Positions 20,647 to 50,671 of a stretch of DNA of 64,000 nt are shown here, piece after piece. The position numbers and the translations under genes are program-made. Each line of letters begins with the position of its first letter. Within the stretch, counting starts at the first letter, position 1. Origin of the DNA: an uncultured delta proteobacterium (GTDB taxonomy: Bacteria > Desulfobacterota > RBG-13-43-22); NCBI GenBank assembly GCA_963802945.1, contig CAWDKY010000029.1, positions 32,001 to 96,000 on the forward strand, in the 5' to 3' direction. The notes beneath the pieces are model-generated. The model was not told the origin of the DNA and did not search any database. It worked only from the letters and a program-made list of their open reading frames with translations.

Positions 20647-20997
20647 TGGTGGAGGCGGCGGGAGTTGAACCCGCGTCCGAAAATACATCACTTAGGCCTC
20701 TACATACTTATCCTGGCTATTTAAGATTCGCTTTCCAGGGATCCACCAGGCGGGAGACCTGAAAAGCTAGCCCGTATAAAGTTTCACCCTTCCGCCTACA
20801 GGCCATTCGGTCAGGCTATCCTGCTAATCGTCACCCTTATCTTCCCCGCAGGAAAGAAAGACAGAGTGTCGGCCGACTAAGCGGCCAAGGCGTAATCGTA
20901 GTTGTCTGCGATTATTGTTTCCTATCTGTTTTACGAGCCGATAGGACCTCGGTATGCCACCTAAGCTAAATATCCCCGTCGAAGCCGTTTCGCCCCC
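20647..20997 (-). ncRNA. ssrA: tmRNA, tag peptide ADNYDYALAA
   Basis: 5' GGGGGCGAAACGGCTTCGAC, 3' TTCAACTCCCGCCGCCTCCACCA; tag ORF 20909-20877. Confidence 0.96.
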
Positions 20998-37175: not shown

Positions 37176-38234
37176 ATGATGCCAGAACGAAGGTTGTCTA
37201 AAGTCATGACAACCAGGGAGGCGATAAGCCGGTTTGTTCGAGACGGTGACAGTGTGATTACGGGCAACTATACGGAGTCTTTACCTCTGAGTCTTATTTT
37301 TGAGATCATCAGACAGCGAAAAAAAGGACTGACTTATTACAGCCAATCCGGCTCGCTCGATGCGGACTTCCTGGTCGCCGGAGACTGCGTCGACAAAATG
37401 ATATCGGCCTTTTTGTCGAAGTTTGGAGGGCGAGATGCGGGCTGCATGGTCGAACGGTACCAGCGCGCCGGGAAGCTACTTGTGGAAGACTATTCGAATT
37501 TCACGTACAGTGCCCGCCTCGCAGCCGGCGCTTACGGTTACTCCTATATGCCGGTCCTTCCGGCCATCATGGACACGGACGTCTTCCGGATCCGGGGCTT
37601 CATGGGAGACCAGAAATTCGGCCTGACAACCTGCCCGTTTACAGGCCGGCAGATCCCCGTCGTTCCGGCGGCTAACCCCGATGTCTGTCTGCTGCATGTC
37701 CAGCGAGCGGATAAATTTGGCAACGCCCAGCATTGGGGCGGCCTGGGTTCCACCGTCCATGCCTGCCTGGCCAGCAAAAAAATCATCGTGACCTGCGAAG
37801 AGATCGTCGACCATGACATCATCATATCAAGTCCCCATTTGACGATTGTCCCCGCCTTCCGCGTCTGTGCCGTCATCGAGGAACCTTACGGCTCGCATCC
37901 CACGGAACTTCCGGGTTACAGAAACAGGGATATGGCGATGAGCAGCCTCATCACGAGTTCCTACACCAAAGAAGAGGGTTTGAAAACCCTGTTCGACGAA
38001 TGGGTTTATGGTTTGCCCGACCGGTCGGCCTACATGGATCATTATATAAAAGTCTTCGGCCAGGTCTCGCTCGACCGCATCCGCGCTAAACCCTACTATT
38101 CGGCACCCGCCAATTACGGCATTGCTTTCGATTCGGGTTGGGATGCGAACGGTCTTGCCTGGGAACTCGGCGTTGATATGGAGGGACTGGAAAGGCTGAT
38201 CGAGCAGAAAGGAGAAATTGTCGATGTTGACTAA
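37176..38234 (+). CDS. Family I CoA-transferase subunit A (GctA-like)
   Basis: EAISRFVRDGD, EIIRQ, HVQRADKFGN. Confidence 0.88.
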   Translation: MMPERRLSKVMTTREAISRFVRDGDSVITGNYTESLPLSLIFEIIRQRKKGLTYYSQSGSLDADFLVAGDCVDKMISAFLSKFGGRDAGCMVERYQRAGKLLVEDYSNFTYSARLAAGAYGYSYMPVLPAIMDTDVFRIRGFMGDQKFGLTTCPFTGRQIPVVPAANPDVCLLHVQRADKFGNAQHWGGLGSTVHACLASKKIIVTCEEIVDHDIIISSPHLTIVPAFRVCAVIEEPYGSHPTELPGYRNRDMAMSSLITSSYTKEEGLKTLFDEWVYGLPDRSAYMDHYIKVFGQVSLDRIRAKPYYSAPANYGIAFDSGWDANGLAWELGVDMEGLERLIEQKGEIVDVD

Positions 38235-39039
38235 GAAAATAACCAGAGCAGAACTACTGGTTGTTGCCGCCGCGCGTCAGATCAAAAATGGCGACGTTGT
38301 TATTCTGGGGATCGGGGTGCCGGTTTATGCCGGCGCCATCGCCAAGAAGACCCATGCCCCCGACGCGGTCCTGGCGCTCGAATCGGGAATTATCGATTTC
38401 GATCCCCTCGTGCCGCCGGTAAATATCGCCGACGCCACCTGCACCCGCGGATATGGCTATGCGACGGACCTGTTCAGCGTCTTTACGACCATCGCTTATG
38501 CCGGATACCTTGACAAGGTCTTTCTCGGCGTCGGCCAGATCGACCGCTACGGTAATCTGAACACGACTTATCTGGGTGAGCCGCCCCAGGCTCAGCGCAT
38601 CACAGCCGCGGGCGGAGCGCCGGATTTTGCCGCCTATGCGAAAGAGACCATCCTTACGATGAAGGGGCAGGGCTTTGTCGAAAAACTGCCTTATCTCACT
38701 TCGCCTGGCTATCTGGGCGGCGGAGACGAGAGAGAAAAATCGGGCCGGTACACGCGCGGCTCCGGTCCAAGCCTCCTTCTCACTCCGAAGGCGATGTTTC
38801 GTTTCCACCATGAAACCAAGGAAATGTACCTCGATGCTTTGTTTCCCGGATTCACGGTGGAGGACATCCGCGCCGACATTCCGTGGGATCTGAAGGTGGC
38901 CGATACACTCAGCCACGTTCCCATTCCCACAGACGAAGAGATCTATTATTTGCGCAAATTTGCCCCGCGCAGCCCTTTCAAGAACAAAATCGGACGGGAA
39001 CTCATGATCGAATATTTTGAAAAGAAGAGAAAGGCGTGA
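38224..39039 (+). CDS. Family I CoA-transferase subunit B (GctB-like)
   Basis: LESG catalytic Glu, QIDRYGNLN, SPGYLGG. Confidence 0.88.
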   Translation: MLTKKITRAELLVVAAARQIKNGDVVILGIGVPVYAGAIAKKTHAPDAVLALESGIIDFDPLVPPVNIADATCTRGYGYATDLFSVFTTIAYAGYLDKVFLGVGQIDRYGNLNTTYLGEPPQAQRITAAGGAPDFAAYAKETILTMKGQGFVEKLPYLTSPGYLGGGDEREKSGRYTRGSGPSLLLTPKAMFRFHHETKEMYLDALFPGFTVEDIRADIPWDLKVADTLSHVPIPTDEEIYYLRKFAPRSPFKNKIGRELMIEYFEKKRKA

Positions 39040-39336
39040 TCATCAAGGGTTTTTTACAACCTTCAAAGGTTTCTCATAGGGATGACTGCCGAAGCGATTG
39101 GGCACCAGGCAATCAGTTTGACAGTTTGGGGTCGGGCCACGACAATCTGTTAATTATTCGTAATTAATGTTCTTGAAAAAGGTGTTTTCAAGGCCTATAT
39201 CATCCTTTATGGCCTCCAAAAGAACCTTATAGGAAGCAGCCGCCTCATGAATTTGACTCCCTTCACCTTTGAATAAGGCCTTTTTTCCCATTTCCTTAGT
39301 CTAGTCCGACCTCCATTTAAATTTACGTCAGCTTCC

Positions 39337-39897
39337 TCAACTTGTTGTCCGGCGCCATGATTTCTCCAAATCTCCTGCTTCGGCTGGGCTCCAGGGCTTG
39401 ACCCGAGGCCGCCAGCGTCGAACGCCTGCCTGATAGGCGCTGTAGCTCTCGCCGAATTGCCCCCGAAGCGTCGGCTCCTCGTAAGCGATTACCAAGAGAT
39501 GGAAGAGACACCAGACGACGCCCGTAAAGACAAGCACTCCCAGGCTGCCAAATAGCAGGGCTTGGCCGAGAATAGTCATGACGACGGCTATATACATCGG
39601 ATTCCTGACGTATCGATATAGACCAGACACCACAAGAATTGCTGGAGGCGCCACCGGCGCTGGTGTACCGCGCCCTTGAATTGCAAACCGGGCGAAAGAA
39701 TCCAGTAGGCACGCTGCCCCGATAATGATCAGCAAAACTCCAACCAGGCGTAGGATGCCAAGGCCCAGGAACGGTGGTCCAATCTGCCAGCCGGCAATTT
39801 CACCTGGAATGATACCGGCCACTACGCCGGGTGCCACGCAGAAGAAGATGGCCGTACCCAGCAACGGAGCCAACACACTCTTTTTCTTCTCTCCCAC
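39337..39897 (-). CDS. Isoprenylcysteine carboxylmethyltransferase/PEMT family protein
   Basis: GRGTPAP..LVVSGLYRYVRNPMY, EEPTL. Confidence 0.88.
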   Translation of the reverse strand: MGEKKKSVLAPLLGTAIFFCVAPGVVAGIIPGEIAGWQIGPPFLGLGILRLVGVLLIIIGAACLLDSFARFAIQGRGTPAPVAPPAILVVSGLYRYVRNPMYIAVVMTILGQALLFGSLGVLVFTGVVWCLFHLLVIAYEEPTLRGQFGESYSAYQAGVRRWRPRVKPWSPAEAGDLEKSWRRTTS

Positions 39898-40088
39898 TCA
39901 CGATCTCCTCTCACCCTGCATTTCCCCTCTGGCCATTCTACATTCTTTCCTTAATCGTTAGTTTAGAGTCACCACTTAAAGTCCAGGATTTTAAACCCGC
40001 CCCAGACCTGTACAAAATTAGTATGCTATCACCGGATTTGTCGGGGTCCATCGCCACCTACGTTAGGGGGGCCACTTCAAAATTTCAA

Positions 40089-40229
40089 CTAACGTTGCCC
40101 TGCCGGCCCGGGGATGCTGAACTCTGGTGGTTGGTTAGGCGTCTGAACTGGGGGTCCAGTTGCGCATCCCCCAACAAGCAAGATGGTAGTGAGACAAATG
40201 AAAAAAAGAAAGCAACAGGCTATTTTCAT
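40089..40229 (-). CDS. 46-aa lipoprotein-signal ORF, probably a truncated cassette gene
   Basis: AGGAAGG RBS; MKIACCFLFFICLTTILLVGGCATGPP; follows a GTTAGCA core. Confidence 0.5.
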   Translation of the reverse strand: MKIACCFLFFICLTTILLVGGCATGPPVQTPNQPPEFSIPGPAGQR

Positions 40230-40257
40230 CGTTCCTTCCTTTTACTTATTTTTGCTC

Positions 40258-40330
40258 TGCTAACATAGAGCTCAGTTGCGCCGCCGCATCAGCCCGGCAT
40301 CGCACTGAATTCAACGAATACACCTACAAC
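40258..40330 (-). repeat. attC-like half site
   Basis: ...GGCGCAACTGAGCTCTATGTTAGCA; internal ACTGAATTCAACGA recurs at ~59463. Confidence 0.5.
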
Positions 40331-40385
40331 TGTTTCAAGAATATAGACCGGAAAATTAACAATTGCTATTTGAAGTATTGGTATT

Positions 40386-40489
40386 TGGGGTCAAATCTTT
40401 TATCTTTACATTTTAAAAAAATAGAAAAAGAAATTCAGTCAAGTTTGGAATAAACCGATTGAAATGTAAAGATAAAAGGTTTGACCCCA
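40386..40489. repeat. REP/REPIN-like long palindrome
   Basis: 28-bp arms TGGGGTCAAATCTTTTATCTTTACATTT, one mismatch. Confidence 0.85.
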
Positions 40490-40514
40490 TTTTCACAGTG
40501 TTCAGCTTAAAAGC

Positions 40515-40612
40515 TTCTTTTGGGGGGCAAAAAGATCGGTATAAGGCCTTTTTATCCCCTTATTTTTAGTATCTTCCAGTGGAATTTCACCCTGTTGTTT
40601 TGGTCCGACCCC
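40515..40612. repeat. Repeat family A copy (partial)
   Basis: TCTTTTGGGGGG..AAAA..TCGGT...TCCGACCCCAATT as at 28830-28930. Confidence 0.7.
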
Positions 40613-40689
40613 AATTACACAGATCCTGTTCTCATTAGGGTAGGGGAGTAGGCCTTGAATATTACAAATTACAGCGTTAGTGAATCAAT

Positions 40690-40746
40690 AGGGTCAGGTC
40701 TTTTATTGTGGTATTAGTAAAATATCAAGATAAAAGACCTGACCCT
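40690..40746. repeat. REP-like palindrome
   Basis: 17-bp perfect arms AGGGTCAGGTCTTTTAT. Confidence 0.85.
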
Positions 40747-40764
40747 TTCCCGCATTGGCCCCGA

Positions 40765-40808
40765 CCCCTCACAAAATCGGGCTTGTGATTTCCCGCATCC
40801 GATTTTTC
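40765..40808 (-). mobile_element. Degenerate group II intron domain V fragment
   Basis: AAAATCGGATGCGGGAAATCACAAGCCCGATTTTGTGAGGGG. Confidence 0.5.
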
Positions 40809-41005
40809 AGACATAGGAGGGAAGTAGGGAATTCCCTCTCTACACGAATTCGCCTTTATTTTTAAACATTATTTAGACTTCTACTCAGATTTGTAAAGAT
40901 AAATTTCAGATATTCAGTAAGGTTGTTCTAAGGACCTCCTGCTCTTGTAACATCCTGACCTAAAGTCCAAGATTATAAACCCGACCCCCAGACCTACCTC
41001 CTTTG

Positions 41006-41338
41006 TCACTGGGCGTGTTTGCCGCATAATGCCGTCCATGGGATGGCTTCGAGCCGCTTTATGGGTATCGGTTTTCTGCAAACCTCGCAGAAGCCGTATC
41101 GGCCCGTTTCCATCATCGACAGCGCATGGTCAATAGCCTCGATCTCTTCTCTCTCCTGGTCATCCAGGTGCTCCAGGAAGTCGGCTGAGGACTCCTTCTG
41201 GGCTTTTTCTTCGGGCTCGATATCGGGCTCGGCCAGGATATGCTGCGTTTCTTCAGAGTTTCTGTGCTTTTCGAGAAGTTCGTCGCGTCTTTTGACTAAT
41301 CGCGTACGAAGGCGTCTCATCTGTTCCGATCTTTCCAT
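41006..41338 (-). CDS. TraR/DksA family C4 zinc-finger protein
   Basis: GRYGFCEVC..PIPIKRLEAIPWTALC. Confidence 0.9.
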   Translation of the reverse strand: MERSEQMRRLRTRLVKRRDELLEKHRNSEETQHILAEPDIEPEEKAQKESSADFLEHLDDQEREEIEAIDHALSMMETGRYGFCEVCRKPIPIKRLEAIPWTALCGKHAQ

Positions 41339-41694
41339 AAGGACCTCCTGCCTGCAGGATTGTAGTGTCTTCCCTTTGTGCCTTATCTAATATAAGTCAG
41401 ATAGTCCGATTTTAAAAGAGGTCTCAGTAGATTCCCGCACATGAATATTTGGGGATCAAAAAGTTGATCATAGGCCTAAAATAAGCCTCTTTGTTTGAAT
41501 AGTATGATGATATTTTAAATAGGTGTCATCTCCCGACTACTCAAAAATCAATAAAAAACATAATTGAAATTAACAATTGTTGTGTGTATTTTCCCCCTCT
41601 TCCTCTCCTCAGATATTTTTTTGGTATTATGTCCTTTGATTTGGAGCTTTTTACAAAGCCATATATATTTTGACTTTTTACGAACTCGGCTGCC

Positions 41695-42039
41695 TTATTT
41701 ACCACAGCATTTTTTATATTTTTTCCCGCTTCCACAAGGACAGGGCTCGTTGCGTCCAACTTTTTTTTCGGCTGTCGTTGGTTTTAATGGACTCAGCAAT
41801 CTTTCTAAATCGGTAATATCCTCCGGTTGATCCGGTTCCAATCCAATGGTATATTTCCAATTGTTTTTTTCAAATATGGTTGCCACTTCTTTCATTTTTT
41901 CTTCTGTTTGTACACGAACAACTGCCGGATTCTTTTCAGTCCCTAATTTTGCCGTTTTTTTAACAGCAAACATTCTTGCCCTTTTTTCTCCATCAAAAGT
42001 AGTTGCTTTCTTGGTACCATCAACAAATATTTTCCCCAT
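41695..42039 (-). CDS. SEC-C motif protein (PBPRA1643-like)
   Basis: [14 protein letters not shown]...EDITDL; [18 protein letters not shown]. Confidence 0.85.
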
Positions 42040-42151
42040 TTTTCTCCTTTAAAAATTATGATAGGATTCACCAACCACCTGACCTCAAACGGCAGGAGCA
42101 CTAATTGGTGCCGCCTGCATGGCCTGGGCGGTCACTCCAGCCTGTTTTCTG

Positions 42152-42262
42152 TCATGGTTTTCTTTTCGGTTGCTTGACCAGCTTATTTTTTGCTTTTTGG
42201 TCCTGTTTGTTTGTCCTCTGTTTCTGCCCTTTGTCCTTATCCTTCTTGCCTTTGTCTCCCAT
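42152..42262 (-). CDS. 36-aa Lys-rich small protein (absent from ORF track)
   Basis: GAAAGGAG RBS; MGDKGKKDKDKGQKQRTNKQDQKAKNKLVKQPKRKP. Confidence 0.65.
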   Translation of the reverse strand: MGDKGKKDKDKGQKQRTNKQDQKAKNKLVKQPKRKP

Positions 42263-42321
42263 TGGGTTAGCTCCTTTCTCTGCTGTCCTTCATCTTTTCA
42301 ACGCGAGGGCACGGCGAGTAG

Positions 42322-42520
42322 TGTCAGGTCTATAATGTTTCATTCCCTTTATCATTAACCAAATCGTTTAGACTTCTGTTTAGATGTGTAAAGTAAAATC
42401 CCAGATAGTCGGTACGATTATCCCAAGGATCGCCTGCTCCTGGAATAGACAGACTTAAAGTCCAAGCTGATAGACCCGCCCCCAGATGTGTACAAAATAA
42501 GTATACTGTCATCGGAATTC
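42322..42520. repeat. Repeat family B, REP-bounded element
   Basis: TGTCAGGTCTAT...ATAGACCCGCCCC ends; related at 27710-27805, 39975-40040, 40855-40995. Confidence 0.7.
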
Positions 42521-42577
42521 GGCGCACATCCACCCTGAGGGCGCCATAAGTCGTAGCGCTCAATGGTGTTATTAGAT
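42521..42577 (-). other. Degenerate attC-like recombination site overlapping the HEPN gene stop
   Basis: ATCTAATAACACCATTGAGCG...CGCCCTCAGGGTGGATGTGCGCC imperfect hairpin. Confidence 0.5.
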
Positions 42578-43342
42578 TTCGTACTTTGTAATGACATTGT
42601 CAACTAGGTCGATAATAAAATCGGTAGTCTTTACCTCGGAGATGCTTATGGAAGAGGGGTGAGCTGAGGAATTTCTAATACCTAGTTTTGTGTCGAGTAT
42701 CTTGCGAACGTCATTGCTTATGATCTTGGCCCCTCTAGCGAGTTCAACCAGTTTGCTCTCCGGCATCTCGGTGAAGTCATCGATCTTGGAAATTCTAGAA
42801 ATTTTGATTCTTTTGTCTTTGTCTTTTGCTAATGCTGAGTTGAATGACGATAATTCATTTTTCAGGATGTATTCGCAAAGGTGATAGACGGCAAGAATCC
42901 AAACCAAAACTATCGCCGCTCTTCTGGCACCAATTTCATAACAATCAATAGCTTCTTGAAGAAACGATTGCTCCTTTTTATCTCTAAGCTTGGAAAGTAA
43001 TGCCCGGAGCAAGTAGCTCGTTTCGATTTTAGCTGGTCCAGTATGGAGAGATTTTTGAATATATAGTTGATAACTTCGTTCAAGTTGGTAGCCATCGCGC
43101 GTTTTAATATATTTTGGTTTATCGCCCCCCTTACCTTTGAAGCTCCGTGAAAGGTATGCAGGGATGTTTGAATACTTGTTAAGTCTACTGAGACTGAAAC
43201 ACGCCTCAACGTCCGACGCTTGGACAGCATCCTTGGATTCGATTACGGTCAGGTAATAAACGAAATAGTCGATCAGACTAGCAGGAGTCTGCGTATCAAG
43301 ATCCGGCACTTGCAATAGAAAATTATCCAGCTTCTCGTTCAC
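42572..43342 (-). CDS. Hypothetical protein: N-terminal wHTH-like domain + C-terminal HEPN domain
   Basis: FLQEAIDCYEIGARRAAIV helix and RNSSAH (Rx4H) motif. Confidence 0.72.
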   Translation of the reverse strand: MNEKLDNFLLQVPDLDTQTPASLIDYFVYYLTVIESKDAVQASDVEACFSLSRLNKYSNIPAYLSRSFKGKGGDKPKYIKTRDGYQLERSYQLYIQKSLHTGPAKIETSYLLRALLSKLRDKKEQSFLQEAIDCYEIGARRAAIVLVWILAVYHLCEYILKNELSSFNSALAKDKDKRIKISRISKIDDFTEMPESKLVELARGAKIISNDVRKILDTKLGIRNSSAHPSSISISEVKTTDFIIDLVDNVITKYEI

Positions 43343-43344
43343 GG

Positions 43345-43908
43345 TTACTCGCTATCCTCTGCCTTGCCAAGATCATGTTCTAAATAATTGATCCCAGCAA
43401 TGGGAACCTTAATGTCTTCAAGCGAGCTTGTATCGATCCACCCTTTGTGATGGGATGTATCGAGCAGGCTTTGGGCCAGCGCCATTGGAGATTTAATTCC
43501 CTTGATGTGGCGATAACATGTGAAGACGTGATCCACTGTAATAGGAGTATGCTCAATAACTTGCTGCAAGTAGTAACAAAACACTAGATTCTTCTCGAAA
43601 TTCGACTTAGCCGAGTATTGCTCATAGAAGTCCTTCAGATTAGATTTCTTACCTTTTCCGGAGAGATCAAGATCCTTAACGATTTTCGGTGCTGTCTTAC
43701 CCGTGTTGGCCTTTCGTTTCTTGGCAGACTTTCCTGCTTGTTTGTCTGGTTGCGTTCTTCCTATCGTCTTAGTTTGAGACCGATGTTTCAGGTGCGTCTG
43801 CTGGATTTGTTCCTTGAAGTCCGTGTAAATGGAGAGAACGAATTCCTCAGTTCCCTCAGCTTCAATTGTTCCCTGGGTCAAGTCGATTCTGATTCTTGTT
43901 TGAGTCAT
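43345..43908 (-). CDS. Hypothetical protein: short beta N-domain, basic linker, C-terminal wHTH-like domain
   Basis: AGGAGAGG RBS; 187 aa; 2-nt gap to the HEPN gene. Confidence 0.7.
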   Translation of the reverse strand: MTQTRIRIDLTQGTIEAEGTEEFVLSIYTDFKEQIQQTHLKHRSQTKTIGRTQPDKQAGKSAKKRKANTGKTAPKIVKDLDLSGKGKKSNLKDFYEQYSAKSNFEKNLVFCYYLQQVIEHTPITVDHVFTCYRHIKGIKSPMALAQSLLDTSHHKGWIDTSSLEDIKVPIAGINYLEHDLGKAEDSE

Positions 43909-43932
43909 TCTTCCTCTCCTTTCAAAATTTAT

Positions 43933-44285
43933 CAAGTTATTCTAAAGTCTTCTGTATATCTCCCCAAGCCAAGGGGGCCATCGGGATTATCATTAATGGA
44001 TATTTATCTTGACTTAATTACCCGAAGACATCCCTCCACACAAATTTTTTATGGCTATAACCGGCACGGGTTTTAACATTAATAGGATCGTAGGTAAAGG
44101 GAATGCTTGGTTGATTGGATGGATCTTTTGGGATATGGGTCTGGGCCATAAATCTCCTTAAGATCTTAAAGAAAGAAATTTGGAAAAATTGGTTAGACTT
44201 GGTCAGTATAACATAACCAGTTAAATTGTCGAGAAATTTCTTATGGAAGAAATACGTTTATTAAGAAGTGTAAAAACTTGAGCAA
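43933..44285 (-). repeat. Repeat family C copy 1 (promoter + 43-aa leader ORF 44149-44018 + core-like site)
   Basis: Collinear with 45881-46265. Confidence 0.85.
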
Positions 44286-44395
44286 ATGGGGGGGAAAGGG
44301 TATTTTTCGACTCATAGTAGCATAGTGGAACCCCAAAGGTTCGGCAAATACCTTCAATGTCCTTTTGCGAGGCCTGGTCTAAATGACCCATTGTT

Positions 44396-45787
44396 TCATG
44401 ACCCCCTTACAGAATTTTGCCTATTGCCCGAGTAACATATAAAGTCTTCATACACCTTGCGATTCAACTGGATATTCCTTCTGTATGAAAGGTTGCCCAC
44501 GAGACTGAGCCACGGCTTGCGGCGTTGCCATATGTTGCTCCACACCCTGCGCAGAATGCGCGGCATGGAGTAGAAACCCCGGTCGCAGGTAATCTTTTCC
44601 TGAATCACGTCGGCAAGAGATAAATGCCTATATCGGGCAACCGGGAAGGTCAGCGTGTAATATTTCCAGTCTTCCGGAAACCTATTAAGGGCGATGCGGT
44701 CCTCCGATTTCATCCGGTCCCACAGGCGCGTGCCCGGCAAGGGCGTCAGAAATAACGTGTTGAGATTGTCTACGCCATACCGACTGGCCACCTCGGCGAT
44801 ACGTTTGCCGATGCCCGGCTCGTCTATGTCCAGACCGATGACAAAGGACCCTACGACCAGTATCTTGTGCCGCTGTATACGCTGCACGGAGGTGCGGAAG
44901 TCCCGGCCCTTCAGTAGGTTGAATTTCTTGCCGATTTCCCGAAGCCCTTCCGGTGAGAGGGACTCAAAGCCGATAAAGACGCCTCGGCACCCGGCCTTCG
45001 CGGCCAATGAAAGGAGTTCTTCATCATCGGCGAAGTTAATGGTGACCTGGGCAACCCATTCCTTTCGCAGGTTCGCTTGTGACATGGCACGGAACAGGTC
45101 CTTGGCGCGGGCGATATGTTCAGGACGTGTGCCGATGAGATTATCGTCCACCAGCAGAACATGTTTCTCGCGGATCAACTGGAATTCCCGGACGATATCC
45201 GGAATGGGTCGCAGCCTGTAGTGGGCACCGTTAAAGGCTGTCACGCTGCAAAAGGTGCAGTTCAGTGGGCAGCCTCGTGTGGTCTGAATAGCTCCGAGGG
45301 CGTATCCCGTATTAAGCAAATCATGGCGGGCTAAGGGGACATCGTCGATCTCGGCGAGCCCTCCGTCATACCGGCGCTTCAGACTCCCACGTTGGGCATC
45401 CTCCAGGACCTCCCGCCAGATGCTCTCAGCTTCCCCTGTGACAACCGAGTCCACACGCTCCATGACCTCCTCTAAGCACATGGTTGCGTGAATACCGCCC
45501 ATGACGACGGGCACACCCAGACTCCGGAAGGAAGCGGCCACTTCATAGGCGCGGGTCGCCTGGGAAGTGAAAGCGGTAATGCCCACCAGGTCCGGCCGCG
45601 GCATGGCTGAATAGTCCGGCACTCCGAGGTTCTCGTCCACAATCGAGATTTCCCACTCCGGCGGGGTCAGTCCCGCGAGAACCATAAGGCCGAGGGGTTT
45701 CCACACCCGGTACCGGTTCCAGCGGCTCTCATTGATTTTGGTGATGGCGACCAGTGGGTTTGAAGGGTTGATCAAATATAGTCGCAT
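44396..45787 (-). CDS. B12-binding domain radical SAM protein
   Basis: VVMGGIHAT, GEAE, RGCPLNCTFCS, LTPLPGT. Confidence 0.92.
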   Translation of the reverse strand: MRLYLINPSNPLVAITKINESRWNRYRVWKPLGLMVLAGLTPPEWEISIVDENLGVPDYSAMPRPDLVGITAFTSQATRAYEVAASFRSLGVPVVMGGIHATMCLEEVMERVDSVVTGEAESIWREVLEDAQRGSLKRRYDGGLAEIDDVPLARHDLLNTGYALGAIQTTRGCPLNCTFCSVTAFNGAHYRLRPIPDIVREFQLIREKHVLLVDDNLIGTRPEHIARAKDLFRAMSQANLRKEWVAQVTINFADDEELLSLAAKAGCRGVFIGFESLSPEGLREIGKKFNLLKGRDFRTSVQRIQRHKILVVGSFVIGLDIDEPGIGKRIAEVASRYGVDNLNTLFLTPLPGTRLWDRMKSEDRIALNRFPEDWKYYTLTFPVARYRHLSLADVIQEKITCDRGFYSMPRILRRVWSNIWQRRKPWLSLVGNLSYRRNIQLNRKVYEDFICYSGNRQNSVRGS

Positions 45788-45880
45788 AGCGCGTATTCGG
45801 TCCTGGTCATGGAGGTCCTTGTCTTCTCCTTTTGCTCACTTCCGTTTTCGTGAATGATTTGTTGTAATTCCTATTCTTTG

Positions 45881-46265
45881 GCTAACAAGTTATTCTGTGG
45901 TTTCTTAATATCTCCCCAACCCAAAGAGGCCTTCAGGGGTATAGTTAATGGCTGTTTATCTTAACTTAATTGCCCGAAGACATCCCCCTACACCTTTAAG
46001 ATTATATAGAAACGTCAGGATTATTTTTGTTTTATCAGAGGGATAATCGGGACGGGTCTTAACAATAAGAGGATTATGGGCAAAGGTAATGAATGATTGA
46101 TTGAATGGATCTTTTGAGACATGGATCTTGGCCATAAATCTCCTCAAGATCTTGAAGAAAGAATTTTGAAGAATCTTAAACTAATGGTCATTATAACATA
46201 ACCAGTTAAATTGTCGAGAAATTTCTTGTGGAAGAAACAGACTTAATAGGGTGTGTGAAAACCTT
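45881..46265 (-). repeat. Repeat family C copy 2 (promoter + leader ORF 46135-45956 + GTTAGCC core)
   Basis: Collinear with 43933-44285; TCGACA-N16-TATAAT with TG extension. Confidence 0.85.
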
Positions 46266-46352
46266 GACAAAGATTGATTACTGTGTAGAATTTCACACAA
46301 GGCATATTTTACAATAGTCTTAAAATGTTATCATTTAAAATGAAAAATGAAA

Positions 46353-46401
46353 TTATAATAAATGTCGGTACTTGACTGTAAATACCGACATTTATTATAA
46401 T
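46353..46401 (+). promoter_or_regulatory. abiE promoter with inverted-repeat operator
   Basis: Perfect 18-bp arms TTATAATAAATGTCGGTA; TTGACT-N18-TATAAT. Confidence 0.8.
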
Positions 46402-46407
46402 ACCCCC

Positions 46408-47016
46408 ATGAAATCAACGAAATCACTGGAAAGCATACTGAATAAGGTAAACATTGGGGCTTTTTTTCACCCGCGCCATCTTGAGCCTTTTGGCATTTCA
46501 TTTCAAGATCTCCAGCGCCTGGTAAAGATGGACAAAATTGAAAAGGTTGGAAAGGGTCTCTACCGCCTGACAGCAATCAAACCGACCGAATTGGAAACCA
46601 TCGCCATGGTTTGTTCCGCTGTCCCTTCGGGAATTATTTGCTTGCTTTCGGCGCTTCTCATCCACGAAATCGGGACACAGAACCCTCATGAAATCTGGCT
46701 GGCGATCGACGTGAAGGCTCGCAAACCAGCCCATCTTCCGGCACGTGTGCGGTTCTTCCGTTTCTCCGGTGTCATGCTCACTTATGGCGTCCAGACTCGA
46801 ACGGTTCAAGGGATTCCAGTACACATCACCTCACCGGCTCGTACGGTGGTGGATTGTTTCCGTTATCGTAATAAAATCGGAATTGATGTAGCTATCGAGG
46901 CTCTTCGCGATGCCGTCCGCTCTCGCAAAGCGACCGTTGATGAGATCGTACGGGCCGCCGAGGCATGCCGTGCCCGGACTATAATGCGGACCTACCTGGA
47001 ATCTTTGACCCCATGA
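46408..47016 (+). CDS. Type IV TA antitoxin, AbiEi family
   Basis: IEKVGKGLYRL, ICLLSAL..HEI, TSPARTVVDCFRYRNKIG. Confidence 0.9.
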   Translation: MKSTKSLESILNKVNIGAFFHPRHLEPFGISFQDLQRLVKMDKIEKVGKGLYRLTAIKPTELETIAMVCSAVPSGIICLLSALLIHEIGTQNPHEIWLAIDVKARKPAHLPARVRFFRFSGVMLTYGVQTRTVQGIPVHITSPARTVVDCFRYRNKIGIDVAIEALRDAVRSRKATVDEIVRAAEACRARTIMRTYLESLTP

Positions 47017-47951
47017 CTGCCCGGGTACCCCGCAACATAGCTGCTTCAGTTCATGCCAGGCTTCTGAACCGTAGTCGAGAGACAGGGGAAGACTTTCAAT
47101 TTCTCCTACACCGATATGTCGCCGAGAGATTTCTGTATCGGTTGGGCGTTTCGATATACCGTGACCATTATGTACTCAAAGGAGCGATGCTTTACGCCCT
47201 ATGGGGTGGATCGATTTACAGACCAACCCGTGACCTTGACTTTACAGGATATGGGAGCAGCCTAACCGAGGATGTACTTTCTGCCTTTCGAAGCATCTGC
47301 GAACTTTCAGTCGAAAATGACGGACTCTCCTTTGATTCTTCCTCCTTCAAAACAGAGCCCATTCGCGATGAAACTGAGTATCAGGGAATTCGTATCCGCT
47401 TTCAGGTAAGGCTTGGCAACGCACGAATCCAAATGCAAGTTGATATCGGGTTTGCAAATGCTATAGAGCCGCCGGCATCTTATGAGTCTTACCCGATCCT
47501 CCTCGATGGGCCGTCCCCACAAATTCGGACCTATCCTCCCGAGGCAGTGGTTGCCGAAAAATTTCATACCATGGTCGTACTCGGCGAGATTAATAGCAGG
47601 TTAAAAGATTTCTATGACCTCCACGCCCTTGCCTCTCAATTTTATTTTGAAGGGGCGAGGGTCGCCCGGGCCATCGAAGTTACCTTTGAGAGGAGACGCA
47701 CAACCATCGAACCCGCCTTACCGGCAGTGCTTACACCTCGTTTTTTTACTGATGTTAGACGTAGAGAACAATGGCGCTCTTATCTTTTTCGCAACAATCT
47801 GCCCGGTGTGCCAGAGGATTTTACCGTTCTTGGGAAAGTTAATATATCGTTTCTCGTCCCTGTTTGGGGCGCTATTGCCAAACGATCAACATTTGATTTG
47901 ATCTGGCCTCCTAGGGGGCCTTGGAAACCAATCAGGAAGAAAGGCCGATAA
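47013..47951 (+). CDS. Type IV TA nucleotidyltransferase toxin, AbiEii family
   Basis: VLKGAML..RPTRDLDF, VAEKF, NSRLKDFYD; ATGA overlap with the antitoxin. Confidence 0.92.
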   Translation: MTARVPRNIAASVHARLLNRSRETGEDFQFLLHRYVAERFLYRLGVSIYRDHYVLKGAMLYALWGGSIYRPTRDLDFTGYGSSLTEDVLSAFRSICELSVENDGLSFDSSSFKTEPIRDETEYQGIRIRFQVRLGNARIQMQVDIGFANAIEPPASYESYPILLDGPSPQIRTYPPEAVVAEKFHTMVVLGEINSRLKDFYDLHALASQFYFEGARVARAIEVTFERRRTTIEPALPAVLTPRFFTDVRRREQWRSYLFRNNLPGVPEDFTVLGKVNISFLVPVWGAIAKRSTFDLIWPPRGPWKPIRKKGR

Positions 47952-48095
47952 TATATTGGGAAAAATCAAAAGGCTTCATTTGTGGTTAACCGATTCCCAG
48001 AATTGATTGGGCTTAAAGTTATCGAAAAAGATTTGACAAACCACGATTCATTTTTTACCAATTTCATAAACACCATTAAATTTTAGGAGGTATCA

Positions 48096-48761
48096 ATGGA
48101 AATCAGAGAGGTTATAAAAGGAAGGCGAAGCATACGAAAGTACAAAGCGGATGAAGTTTCCGAAAAAATAATCCGCGAAATTATCGAGGATGCGCGCTGG
48201 GCGCCCTCGGGCGGTAATACGCAACCGTGGGAGCTATATGTAGCTACCGGGGAATCACTTAGGAAATTTAAAGAAGCCAATCAACGAAATCTTCTCGAAG
48301 GAGTACCGTTAACTCCGGACATAGCCATGCAACAGGACTGGCCGGAAGTCATGAAAAGGCGATATCAGGCCGTGACTAAAAACACATTGACCTCCCAAAA
48401 TATTGACCGGAAAGATAAAGAGGCACGACGGCGGTTCAATGCCGAGATGTTTGCCATTTTTGATGCTCCTGGCCTTATCCTCTTCTGTCTCGACAAGGCC
48501 TTGTCTGTAGGATACGCCATGCTCGACATAGGCATGATACTACAAACCGTCTGTTCGCTGGCCTATGACCGAGGATTGGGGACCTGCATTTTAGCGGCTT
48601 CCATACTGTACCCTCAGGTTGCCAGGGAAATTCTCTTTGTCCCCGAAAGCAAAAATGTGATCATCGGCATTGCCATCGGATATCCTGACTGGGAAGCACC
48701 CGTGAATAATTTTAAGAGAGAAAGGGCGGAGTTGGATGAATTTGTCTTTTGGTTAAAGTAA
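48096..48761 (+). CDS. Nitroreductase family protein
   Basis: RRSIRKY, APSGGNTQPW, GLGTC, IAIGYP. Confidence 0.92.
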   Translation: MEIREVIKGRRSIRKYKADEVSEKIIREIIEDARWAPSGGNTQPWELYVATGESLRKFKEANQRNLLEGVPLTPDIAMQQDWPEVMKRRYQAVTKNTLTSQNIDRKDKEARRRFNAEMFAIFDAPGLILFCLDKALSVGYAMLDIGMILQTVCSLAYDRGLGTCILAASILYPQVAREILFVPESKNVIIGIAIGYPDWEAPVNNFKRERAELDEFVFWLK

Positions 48762-48790
48762 ACCATCACACCAGGAAAGATTGAAACTAA

Positions 48791-48879
48791 TAGGTTGCTG
48801 AAACAGGGGACCGCCCCGAAGGGGTGGGAGTGAGACGAGATGTGGGGCGAACAAAAAGGCCCATCTTTGAGCAACCTGT
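48791..48879. mobile_element. MITE-like element, family D
   Basis: TIR AGGTTGCTGAAA...TTTGAGCAACCT. Confidence 0.6.
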
Positions 48880-48947
48880 AAAAAAAAGTTTTTCCACATC
48901 CTGTTAATCAATAAAACCTAAAGGGTACTATTTCTGAGGCCCAGAAT

Positions 48948-49355
48948 ATGACTGGAAAAATTCTAAAAGCTTCAAAACCGACCAAGCGCTTTTTAGAATT
49001 GATCGGGCTTAAATTCATCAAAAGGGAAAAAGGGTTCTGCCGGTCCGAGCTTTTCATAACCGCATCTCTTTTAAATCCTTATGATACGGTGCACGGCGGG
49101 GTGGTCTATTCCATGGCCGACACCGGAATGGGCGGGGCCCTTTCCACTTGTCTGGAAGAAGACGAACGCTGTTCGACCCTTGAAATCAAGATCAACTACT
49201 TAAAATCCGTGCATTCAGGCAGGTTGATATGCGATACCAAAGTTATCCACAAGGGGAAAAATATCGCTTTTCTGGAATCGGTGGTCAAAGACCACCGAGG
49301 CAAGCCAGTGGCCACGGCCACTGGGACTTTTAATATATTCAAGATGTCAAGCTGA
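48948..49355 (+). CDS. PaaI family thioesterase
   Basis: NPYDTVHGGVVYSMAD, TLEIKINYL. Confidence 0.9.
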   Translation: MTGKILKASKPTKRFLELIGLKFIKREKGFCRSELFITASLLNPYDTVHGGVVYSMADTGMGGALSTCLEEDERCSTLEIKINYLKSVHSGRLICDTKVIHKGKNIAFLESVVKDHRGKPVATATGTFNIFKMSS

Positions 49356-49390
49356 GGATTTCCGAACAGACTAATGATAGAGTTGGTATC

Positions 49391-49936
49391 ATGAGTGAAG
49401 ATAGGGTATACCACCAACCAATCGAAAAACTCCGCGATCCAGACCGTCTGGCCTTTCTGGAAACCGATAAGGTCGTCAAGTTTTGTCTTGAGGGGATTAA
49501 CCCTCGGACGATCCTCGATGTCGGAACCGGCAGCGGTATCTTTGCGGAAGCTTTCTTCCATCGGGGCCTGAAGGTGACCGGGGTCGATATCCAGGAGCCG
49601 ATGCTGGAGGCGGCGCGGACTTACGTTCCCGGTGCAAGTTTTCATTTGGCCCCGTCGGAAAACCTGCCTTTCGAGGAAAATGCCTTTGACCTTGTTTTTC
49701 TGGGGTTGTTGCTCCATGAATCGGAGCAACCCTTAGAGACGCTCAAGGAATCCGCCCGGGTCTGCACTCTTAGAACAGCGGTTTTGGAATGGCCTTATGA
49801 AGAGGGGAAATATGGTCCGCCGCTTGAGTACCGCATTGAACCGGAACAACTCCAAAGTTTGGCGGCCTCGGCCGGTTTTTCCCGGATCAGGACCATTCCC
49901 TTGAAATTATTGTCTCTCTATTTGCTAGATAAATAA
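49391..49936 (+). CDS. Class I SAM-dependent methyltransferase
   Basis: LDVGTGSG, ENLPF..FDLV. Confidence 0.88.
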   Translation: MSEDRVYHQPIEKLRDPDRLAFLETDKVVKFCLEGINPRTILDVGTGSGIFAEAFFHRGLKVTGVDIQEPMLEAARTYVPGASFHLAPSENLPFEENAFDLVFLGLLLHESEQPLETLKESARVCTLRTAVLEWPYEEGKYGPPLEYRIEPEQLQSLAASAGFSRIRTIPLKLLSLYLLDK

Positions 49937-50064
49937 CAGGTTGCTGAAACCGGGGACCGCATTTCTCGGAATTTCTTCGCGTAAAAGACAACGCTCAGTC
50001 CCACCCCTTCGGGGCGGTTCACGGTTTCTGGCGCCTTGTATCTAGACCTTTTTGAGCAACCTGT
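49936..50064. mobile_element. MITE-like element, family D
   Basis: TIR ACAGGTTGCTGAAA...TTTGAGCAACCTGT. Confidence 0.65.
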
Positions 50065-50212
50065 CAAAATGTGTTTTTCCGTACCCTTTTTAGGGACTAA
50101 CGATAGGGATAGCGGCTTGTTTGTGGAAATGGGGCGGGCGGCGTTATGGTTTTTGATTTTTCAAGATATTGGAAATTTCAATCTTGATGCAAAAGGGAAG
50201 AGGCCGATTCGG

Positions 50213-50671
50213 TTATTTTTTTTCTCGCTCTAGGCGGTCGGCTTCCCGTTTCAGGTCTTTTTTCTTTATGGCTTCTCTTTTGTCATAAAGTTTCTTCCCT
50301 TTGGCCAGGGCCAGCTCAACCTTGGCCTTGCCCTCGAGGAAATACAGCTTAAGAGGAACTACGGTTAAACCTTTTTCCTGAATCTTGCCGATCATTCGCC
50401 TGATTTCTTGTTTATGCAGAAGAAGCTTGCGGGTCCGGGTCGGATCCTGCTCATGTAATGGGGAATTTTCATAGGGGCTGATATGGACCTCATATAAAAA
50501 CATTTCCCCACCCTTGGGTTTGGCATAACTGTCTTTAAGGTTGGCCCTCCCGAGACGCAGGGATTTGACCTCTGATCCGGTCAACACCAGACCGGCTTCA
50601 ATGGTCTCCTGAATATGGTAATCGTGATGGGCCTTGCGATTTTGGCTAATGATTTTTATGTGTTCGGCCAT
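50213..50671 (-). CDS. smpB: SsrA-binding protein
   Basis: NRKAHHDY, GSEVKSLR, RKLLLHK, GKKLYDKRE. Confidence 0.98.
   Translation of the reverse strand: MAEHIKIISQNRKAHHDYHIQETIEAGLVLTGSEVKSLRLGRANLKDSYAKPKGGEMFLYEVHISPYENSPLHEQDPTRTRKLLLHKQEIRRMIGKIQEKGLTVVPLKLYFLEGKAKVELALAKGKKLYDKREAIKKKDLKREADRLEREKK

Follow-up and report, generated by a model that had tools for sequence, protein, structure and literature searches.

We analyzed a 64,000-nucleotide (nt) stretch of DNA (the window; G000:C29:32001-96000) from the 4.37-Mb genome of an uncultured delta proteobacterium. It carries on its minus strand two modules of ~350 bp, each composed of a predicted promoter, a short open reading frame (ORF) and a conserved 3′ box, and each located upstream of different cargo genes. 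The explanation that we favor, with moderate confidence, is that the modules are non-autonomous, internally deleted derivatives of an IntI/XerA-like recombinase gene, with an outward promoter and an attI-like site that joins different cargo. Five observations lead to it: the leader ORF is homologous to the recombinase, the recombinase gene occurs in a series of deletions, the module is present in many copies, similarity between copies ends sharply at the box, and the cargo is diverse. Positions below are in window coordinates.

Structure and copy number of the modules

The features of the two modules are the following:

45884..46271, minus strand: module copy 2 (predicted promoter, integrase stub and 3′ box), upstream of a radical SAM gene; collinear with copy 1 and matching the family A copies of the genome and genus
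46190..46217, minus strand: promoter-like site of copy 2, TCGACA-16-TATAAT with a TG extension; predicted, 11/12 matches in a consensus scan
46107..46153, minus strand: 47-nt conserved core of copy 2, imperfectly palindromic, with the ribosome-binding site (RBS), the ATG (46135) and the first ~9 codons; defined by conservation over 62 copies
45956..46135, minus strand: leader ORF of copy 2, 59 amino acids (aa) plus stop, a stub of the recombinase N-terminal domain (ORF list, translation, and alignment with full-length N-domains)
45884..45917, minus strand: 3′ box of copy 2, GGGGAGATATTAAGAAACCACAGAATAACTTGTT; the GTT at 45886-45884 is the end of similarity to other copies (nhmmer E 0.0075, anchored comparison, information profile)
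44396..45787, minus strand: cargo of copy 2, a B12-binding radical SAM protein of 463 aa (PF04055 2.3e-13, PF02310 2.3e-10)
43931..44290, minus strand: module copy 1, whole; collinear with copy 2 (genome search)
44205..44232, minus strand: promoter-like site of copy 1, TCGACA-16-TATACT with a TG extension; predicted, 10/12 matches in a consensus scan
44121..44167, minus strand: 47-nt conserved RBS/start core of copy 1 (ATG 44149), from a motif scan and conservation over 62 copies
44018..44149, minus strand: leader ORF of copy 1, 43 aa plus stop, a recombinase N-terminal stub (BLASTP against P0011)
43931..43963, minus strand: 3′ box of copy 1, GGAGATATACAGAAGACTTTAGAATAACTTGAT, in which GAT replaces GTT (nhmmer E 0.00073)
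43345..43908, minus strand: first cargo gene of copy 1, 187 aa, no Pfam family at E≤5
42572..43342, minus strand: second cargo gene of copy 1, 256 aa, no Pfam family at E≤5; weak PADLOC match to PD-T7-3 (4.8e-5)

An initial annotation, made from the sequence alone, had described the two modules as collinear, and this held. The copies were 82–83% identical, with repeat pairs at 44057-44187/46043-46173 (82%), 43950-44041/45902-45993 (82%), and 44200-44286/46185-46271 (83%). Their MAFFT alignment gave a mean column identity of 83% with a single 34-nt indel, and when copy 1 was used as a query against the whole genome, copy 2 was matched at E 3.5e-66. Both modules have an AGGAG RBS, a short ORF and a box of the form GGGGAGATAT...AGAATAACTTG(T/A)T, that is, with an AACTTG(T/A)T end. 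Copy 2 reads GGGGAGATAT...AGAATAACTTGTTAGCC, and its counterpart in copy 1 ends in ...AACTTGATAAAT. The RBS, both peptides and the conserved 3′ end sequences were thus as the annotation had read them, and so was the end of sequence identity: the copies diverge 3′ of the box and a different cargo follows each.

Only two copies had been implied by that annotation. We found ~9 copies of the module 5′ part and ~20 boxes in the host genome, and gathered 62 distinct copies of the window type (family A) from the genus. A 24-nt start motif gave 14 matches in the host genome at ≤5 mismatches, and nine of these were true copies by context (two on contig C29, two on C28, three on C15, and two on C17). 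One of the C28 copies (C28b; G000:C28:186850-188470, L091) is split by an IS630-like transposase gene, which is itself in two frames. The nhmmer profile of the 3′ box gave 24 matches in the host genome at E≤10, 17 of them at E≤0.015. The 5′ part was present in 11 of the 13 other genomes of the genus, with up to 12 matches per genome. At ≤3 mismatches, the box occurred in 10 of these 13 genomes, in one of seven from other genera of the family and in none of 20 from other families sampled; a reversed-pattern control gave 0 everywhere. A scan by exact 21-mer in one genome per species gave 23 loci; uncultured "delta proteobacterium" or Thermodesulfobacteriota metagenome-assembled genomes account for 19. 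The right end of the module is sharp and its left boundary is fuzzy, with an A/T-rich stretch upstream of the −35.

The promoters proposed in the initial annotation (TCGACA-N16-TATA(A/C)T with TG) were recovered as consensus matches at the scores listed above, and they are predictions. Because a scan for terminator-like sites found none between the promoter and the start of the cargo in either module, we infer that the promoter reads into the cargo. The Geobacter-type LexA consensus is GGTT-N2-C-N4-G-N3-ACC. A LexA box of the looser form GGTT-N11-ACC, which had also been suggested, did not hold up: this form was present in 3 of the 62 copies and 655 times genome-wide, the strict form was present in 0 of 62, and the region upstream of lexA has neither. 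Among 24 public sequencing runs listed, 20 contain part of the window, none of them half of the sampled words, and six of the holders are recorded as RNA. Contigs of four RNA runs fell nearly all on the radical SAM gene (90–99% likeness), and the conserved core was covered by two short pieces of low depth. These contigs give neither start nor strand and do not prove transcription.

The recombinase remnant and its parent clade

It had been suggested in the initial annotation that the leader peptides resemble the N-terminus of integron-like integrases. By BLASTP, the leader of copy 1 matched residues 1–26 of P0011 (12/26 identical, E 2e-6), with a second weak segment against residues 334–339 (E 0.61); the GYSHKK of this leader may be a relic of the C-terminal GHSHSK. 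Two family A copies from two sister genomes (L106:191-457 and L143:1514-1780) encode 89-aa fusions of an N-terminus and a C-terminus, in which the first ~55 residues continue the window peptides and the last ~30 (...EIYTHVSTRNIGRIRSPLDNLDLKK) are a tyrosine-recombinase C-terminus. A search with these fusions, limited to proteins longer than the query, gave 35 matches with E values down to 3.6e-31. The full-length matches have ~370 aa, carry PF13495 and PF00589, and occur in other Desulfobacterota; several are named "site-specific tyrosine recombinase/integron integrase" by NCBI. Their N-termini (MARIQISKDPSGRIIVSFPYDPLLVEKVKT...) align with the window peptides (MAQTHIPKDPSNQPSIPFTYDPINVKT). 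The fusions that match full-length recombinases, together with the BLASTP result of copy 1, therefore show that the suggestion was correct.

The window ORFs (43 and 59 aa) retain only ~27 N-terminal residues of the recombinase. They contain neither the core-binding domain nor the catalytic domain with the RKHRH-Y residues, and they are relics, not members of NF040815. Over codons 2–14 of the 62 copies we counted 278 non-synonymous versus 25 synonymous differences from the consensus, and codon positions 1, 2, and 3 were conserved at 0.63, 0.73, and 0.72. Judged by its sequence, the leader ORF is a recombinase relic and not a peptide gene, with no purifying selection on the peptide. The most conserved stretch over the 62 copies is the 47 nt around the RBS and ATG, conserved at 0.9–1.0 per position at the nucleotide level.

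The full-length relatives pass the NF040815 model, with 230–242 bits at a cut-off of 220. Their best solved relative is VchIntIA (2a3v, E 7.5e-43), followed by XerA. An extra N-terminal domain of ~60 aa weakly resembles HARP (PF07443, 23 bits, under the cut-off of 25). The same N-domain is carried by true IntI proteins of the phylum, which score 448–472 bits on the integron-integrase model TIGR02249 (positive controls L205, L192, and L178); the best score of the host genome on this model was 79.6 bits. At L205:5107-12001 (G168:C2) there is a true integron, whose IntI with the same N-domain is co-directional with the cassettes and whose attC-like repeats have GTTGGGC/GTTAGCC ends. The N-domain was present in 28 of the 401 genomes sampled from the phylum. 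Among the 42 N-domain matches listed, 11 lie in open frames of at least 349 aa; the rest are shorter, and several are at contig ends.

Deleted forms of the recombinase gene recur. The complete genome G058 has four copies, of 348, 210, 194, and 76 aa, and two of them (b194 and c210) have an identical internal deletion junction, are ~400 kb apart and have different genes downstream. P0002 and P0006 likewise have a common deletion junction and differ elsewhere, and a nested series of deletion sizes is present in the genus. Of 600 candidate stretches from metagenomes, 442 encode relatives, and in several cases these are N-terminus-plus-C-terminus fusions within ~300 nt. Stubs, fusions and ~370-aa full-length relatives together support the earlier suggestion of internally deleted, non-autonomous units that bear a (predicted) promoter. 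The host genome gave four tyrosine-recombinase matches, the best two of them Xer-like. Since it has no intact cognate recombinase, its module copies are probably fixed promoter-bearing relics.

The box, its junction, and the cargo

Anchored comparison of the loci in G058, G167, G102, and G116 gave, after the integrase stop, the pattern ...GG.GGTATATC.GAAC...GTT..G.A.T.AAC-AA-GTT. In these four genomes, similarity between copies ends at the GTT of the box and a co-directional gene is next. The full-length recombinase genes of G116 and G167 encode 377 and 379 aa, respectively. The genus box (GGGGAGATATACAGAAAAACTTTAGAATAAC-TT-GTT) aligns with this box 3′ of the full-length integrases, and the motif ends in AAC(AA/TT)GTT. 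The box lies 36–170 nt after the stop codon of the full-length integrases, with the pattern ...TATA.C.GAA...AAC-NN-GTT. That the same box, aligned by the genus box, stands 3′ of the integrases in the four genomes indicates, from these alignments, that the layout integrase, box, cargo is ancestral.

As the initial annotation had anticipated, following the module across the genome and its relatives gave many copies in which conservation stops at the GTT. In 64 distinct boxes, the information content drops from 1.57 to 0.25 bit directly after the last T. The core itself is G in 61, T in 61, and T in 60 of the boxes, with GAT in window copy 1. Positions +1 to +4 after the GTT show a weak RRRY bias (R 47/64, R 41/64, R 40/64, Y 46/64), with the consensus GTTAGGC. 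The integron core site is GTTRRRY, with the crossover between the first and second base, according to a passage of PMC8876359. Among the pairs compared from 59 boxes with long flanks, only one pair had a common right flank (an orthologous locus), and many shared the left flank; cargo thus varies after the GTT, as had been claimed, in all but one of these pairs. A co-directional ORF of at least 100 aa begins within 150 nt of 23 of 27 boxes in the host genome, versus 1,116 of 3,000 random sites, a baseline that is inflated by in-gene starts.

Behind the boxes we found genes for radical SAM proteins, methyltransferases, a Mrr-pentapeptide nuclease, a trypsin-like protease, patatin, TIR, SPFH and HD proteins, a flavin reductase, dehydrogenases, and unknown proteins; several of these are defense-like. 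The radical SAM cargo of copy 2 had been recognized correctly, and has PF04055 with the B12-binding PF02310. The cargo of copy 1 had been called a HEPN pair. Its 187- and 256-aa proteins match no Pfam family at E≤5, so this name is unverified, and their DNA was found in 0 of 13 sister genomes.

G008 has two copies of the window radical SAM gene, with 93–94% identity to it and, in both cases, a family A module in front. The gene and the next module (45917-44209) form a block that is 94% identical between the window and G008, and the cargo beyond that module is unrelated: two unknown proteins in the window versus a protease-like protein and a Ppl/AAA-ATPase defense-like protein in G008. In a synteny comparison with G008, only cargo pieces of the accessory island that holds the modules match. 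IS200-like Y1 transposase genes (PF01797) lie directly after the first cargo gene of two modules, at L085:4134-4985 (G000:C33) and L089:2537-3172 (G000:C17). One of the two is fused to a helix-turn-helix; in C33 the next box follows the transposase gene without a promoter module.

An SPFH/Band-7 unit of ~1.95 kb has the same end points in seven genomes of the genus (L215-L221; G000:C15:418700-420650 and relatives). Its flanks mostly differ between genomes, with a shared downstream flank in G006 and G007, and the unit behaves like a mobile cassette. The leader is upstream of it in only two of the seven genomes.

A second element, which we call family B, has ~130–170 nt, ends in the same 3′ box and has a strong predicted promoter (TTGTCAAG-N-TATAAT). 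Measured from a GGTTAC motif up to the fourth base beyond the box, its 26 distinct copies have 120–135 nt (127–135 with a single exception); examples are L082:6915-7081 (G000:C41:25814-25980), L084:1317-1483, and L085 (G000:C33:37470-37635). The bases transcribed first repeat the box imperfectly and in inverted orientation: 88.7% of cells pair, many as G-U and with 0 compensatory changes; sliding the partner gives 28–64% paired cells. Three copies hold an internal insert (a HicB-like gene, a ribbon-helix-helix-like gene, and a 1.85-kb insert). At L161:1146-3518 (G004:C38), a tyrosine recombinase and an IS91-type transposase form a pair that stands as "cargo" 195 nt after a family B box.

The window modules lie within an accessory island of ~11 kb (39100-50200), between CoA-transferase genes (37176-39039) and smpB (50213-50671); the window also holds the tmRNA gene (20647-20997, minus strand). 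Next to copy 2, at 46264-47951, an AbiEi-like gene (weak PF13338) and AbiEii form a toxin–antitoxin pair that is transcribed away from the module. Between this pair and copy 2 there are a palindrome with 22-nt arms (46352-46401) and plus-strand promoter-like sites at 46264-46291 and 46372-46401; the palindrome may be not a terminator but the operator of AbiEi. A third family of repeats, of ~80–160 nt (GTCTGGGG.GGGT...CTTGGACTTTAAGT...) is found on the minus strand at 42360-42520, 40870-40995, and 39960-40040, in each case just 3′ of the stop of a different gene of the island. Long-stem hairpins at 40386-40489 and 40690-40746 have arms of 26–31 nt and related sequences.

Explanations of the modules and known systems

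According to the explanation that we favor, the ancestral unit would have been an N-domain recombinase gene transcribed toward a conserved AAC-NN-GTT site, with unrelated co-directional cargo right after it. Nested deletions would have removed the catalytic body and left the promoter, the RBS, ~27 codons, scraps of C-terminal coding sequence, and the site. The promoter, of sigma-70 type, would now read through the stub into the cargo. The box would be an attI-like core site, where a full-length recombinase, acting in trans or in the past, may have joined different cargo to the platform.

Several results weigh against this explanation. A recognizable box was present within 520 nt in only 17 of the 62 family A copies. 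The 94% block shared with G008 ends inside modules and not at the GTT, so part of the shuffling may come from homologous recombination among the repeated modules. Homology of the SPFH unit with five relatives begins 26–51 nt after the GTT and not at it, which is the part of the claim on cargo variation that did not stand, and in one relative, G004, the leader is present without the box. The full-length relatives of the recombinase fail TIGR02249 (188–237 bits versus 265, in two stretches). No intact N-domain recombinase was found in the host genome (0 matches), in the 14 genomes of the genus or in the 21 of the order, and the full-length copy between the same ends that the initial annotation had envisaged was absent from genus and order. 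No attC-like sites were seen after the cargo in the window or in L203, the locus of a full-length relative, where the repeats are duplicated genes, in a search made without a dedicated attC model, and by reading of its sequence the radical SAM cassette has no inverse core complementary to its first bases. The proposal of a mini-integron was thus borne out in the homology of the GTT box to a site 3′ of the integrase stop, and not in the integrase model or in attC-like sites. Finally, we infer both the promoter role of the modules and capture or recombination at the box from sequence.

We consider it unlikely that the module is itself mobile, as an element like miniature inverted-repeat transposable elements (MITEs) or a cis-mobilizable element that is mobilized in trans and lands upstream of resident genes, in which case the box would be its right end and the cargo diversity would stem from many insertion sites. 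Internal-deletion derivatives that keep both ends do recur and get copied, many copies in other members of the phylum lie at contig ends, as repeats do, and the SPFH unit comes without a module in five of seven genomes and with one in two. Left flanks also differ between copies, and the arrays are short, with 2–3 modules. However, neither terminal inverted repeats nor target duplications were seen for family A by reading of the sequences, the left boundary is fuzzy, two queries of cargo plus module recovered no clean empty site, and the upstream flanks differ in all genomes compared. The bias in orientation toward gene starts would require strong selection or targeting, and the common core that a tyrosine recombinase would leave at either end is not apparent in family A. 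Much less probable is a cis-regulatory leader, either a structured 5′ untranslated region or a leader-peptide attenuator of a regulon. The 47-nt core can form a hairpin that sequesters the Shine–Dalgarno sequence and ATG (−12.3 kcal/mol, 875/930 cells pairable), and the 5′ end of family B is complementary to the box, as described above. Yet no tested helix showed a compensatory change (0 double changes over 15 pairs in 62 copies; 0 in family B), RNAalifold predicted 0 pairs on 26 family B copies, single-sequence folds had no common architecture, a column scan gave no helices other than those tested, and the fold of the whole leader had z = −0.92. Rfam gave no match at the gathering threshold in the window, and none that was relevant at E≤10 in the region or at E≤5 in five loci. 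The downstream genes are unrelated in function, the ORF can be shown to be what remains of a recombinase, and its codons, with the excess of non-synonymous differences given above, are no freer at third positions than at first.

Two narrower ideas received very little credence. One takes the modules as what is left of the outer ends of an IS91-type rolling-circle element whose promoter points outward. The box end CTTG and the GAAC/CAAG of relatives resemble IS91 target tetranucleotides, and G004 has the recombinase and IS91-type transposase pair 195 nt after a family B box. This idea is largely refuted: a module or box lies within ~1.5 kb at only one of the nine loci of the taxonomic order with the recombinase (with or without IS91), and the sole IS91 transposase of the host genome is distant (26% identity) and has no module beside it. 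Loci with the full-length N-domain integrase have no neighboring IS91 transposase, and family A derives from the integrase gene itself. The other, still less credible, is that the short ORF of copy 2 encodes the precursor of a ribosomally synthesized and post-translationally modified peptide, matured by the downstream radical SAM protein. The order of peptide and radical SAM gene is kept at two G008 loci, but the leader region is less conserved between species (75–80%) than the radical SAM gene (93–94%), the same leader precedes many unrelated genes, and there is no purifying selection on the peptide; it was rejected.

Integrons, the standard example of a gene-capture device, are known as a single platform that has one working integrase. 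Like an integron platform (intI, attI, and Pc), above all one of the Treponema type, the modules combine an IntI-related recombinase with a gene-adjacent site that ends in GTT and has a weak RRRY bias. They also have a sharp junction, diverse co-directional genes that start tens of bases later and a predicted promoter that would read into these genes, and true IntI proteins of the phylum have the same N-domain. In Treponema integrons, intI is transcribed toward attI and the cassettes, as stated in part of the text of PMC3607928. Unlike integrons, the parent recombinase lacks the IntI-specific insertion and does not pass TIGR02249, no attC sites were seen, the platform exists as many dispersed solo copies per genome and not as a single locus plus a long array, every copy in the genus has an internal deletion of the integrase, and the recombinase has an extra N-terminal domain.

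Other systems share some of these properties. CALINs are clusters of attC sites, and In0 and intI pseudogenes are other degenerate integrons. Degenerate integrons, In0 and CALINs are reportedly treated by Cury and colleagues in a work of 2016. As in degenerate integrons, integron-type parts persist here without a working integrase; unlike in CALINs, what survives is a promoter, a gene stub and an attI-like site, and these are multiplied. MITEs and the cis-mobilizable elements derived from integrative and conjugative elements have lost their enzyme gene by internal deletion, retain their ends and are multi-copy. The modules are likewise multi-copy and internally deleted from an autonomous element, and their deletion variants are themselves copied. 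Unlike MITEs, they show no inverted terminal repeats or target duplications, belong to an Xer/IntI-type enzyme and have no autonomous partner in the genome. The pdif modules use the host XerC/D and paired inverted sites. Similar to them, our modules delimit discrete units of accessory genes with short sites of Xer-type recombinases; unlike in pdif modules, the site comes with its own decayed recombinase gene and promoter. Units of this kind, bounded by Xer sites, are described on Acinetobacter plasmids in a section of 10.1101/2022.12.17.520857. Putative mobile promoters are highly similar promoter regions upstream of non-homologous genes, within and between genomes (from an excerpt of PMC3575422). 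In contrast to the mobile promoters of that excerpt, the promoter here has an identified origin, a recombinase gene, and is accompanied on its travels by a specific downstream site.

A wider proposal, which we put forward tentatively, is that these elements may belong to a sister system of integrons in Desulfobacterota and other anaerobes, with an IntI-related recombinase without the IntI insert, a HARP-like N-domain and an AAC-NN-GTT attI-like site toward which the recombinase gene is transcribed. Such a system would repeatedly spawn mini-platforms of promoter, stub and site, dispersed over the chromosome and serviced in trans by full-length copies that come in, which could act as capture-and-express sockets for defense and accessory genes, with family B as a second type of socket or a partner site. 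A limited literature search gave no earlier account of this clade of recombinases, nor of integrase platforms that are internally deleted and multiplied.

Should our reading of the modules hold, integron-type platforms can be shrunk and multiplied into many promoter-bearing sockets, and a duplex attI-like site may be in use in an IntI-related clade that lacks the hallmark insertion. Mobile promoters, which genome statistics have pointed to, would be given a concrete molecular origin, and the 30-nt box would be a practical marker for accessory and defense genes in uncultured anaerobes. Were the box inert, the modules would still be a clear case of a decayed mobile-element gene reused as a promoter.

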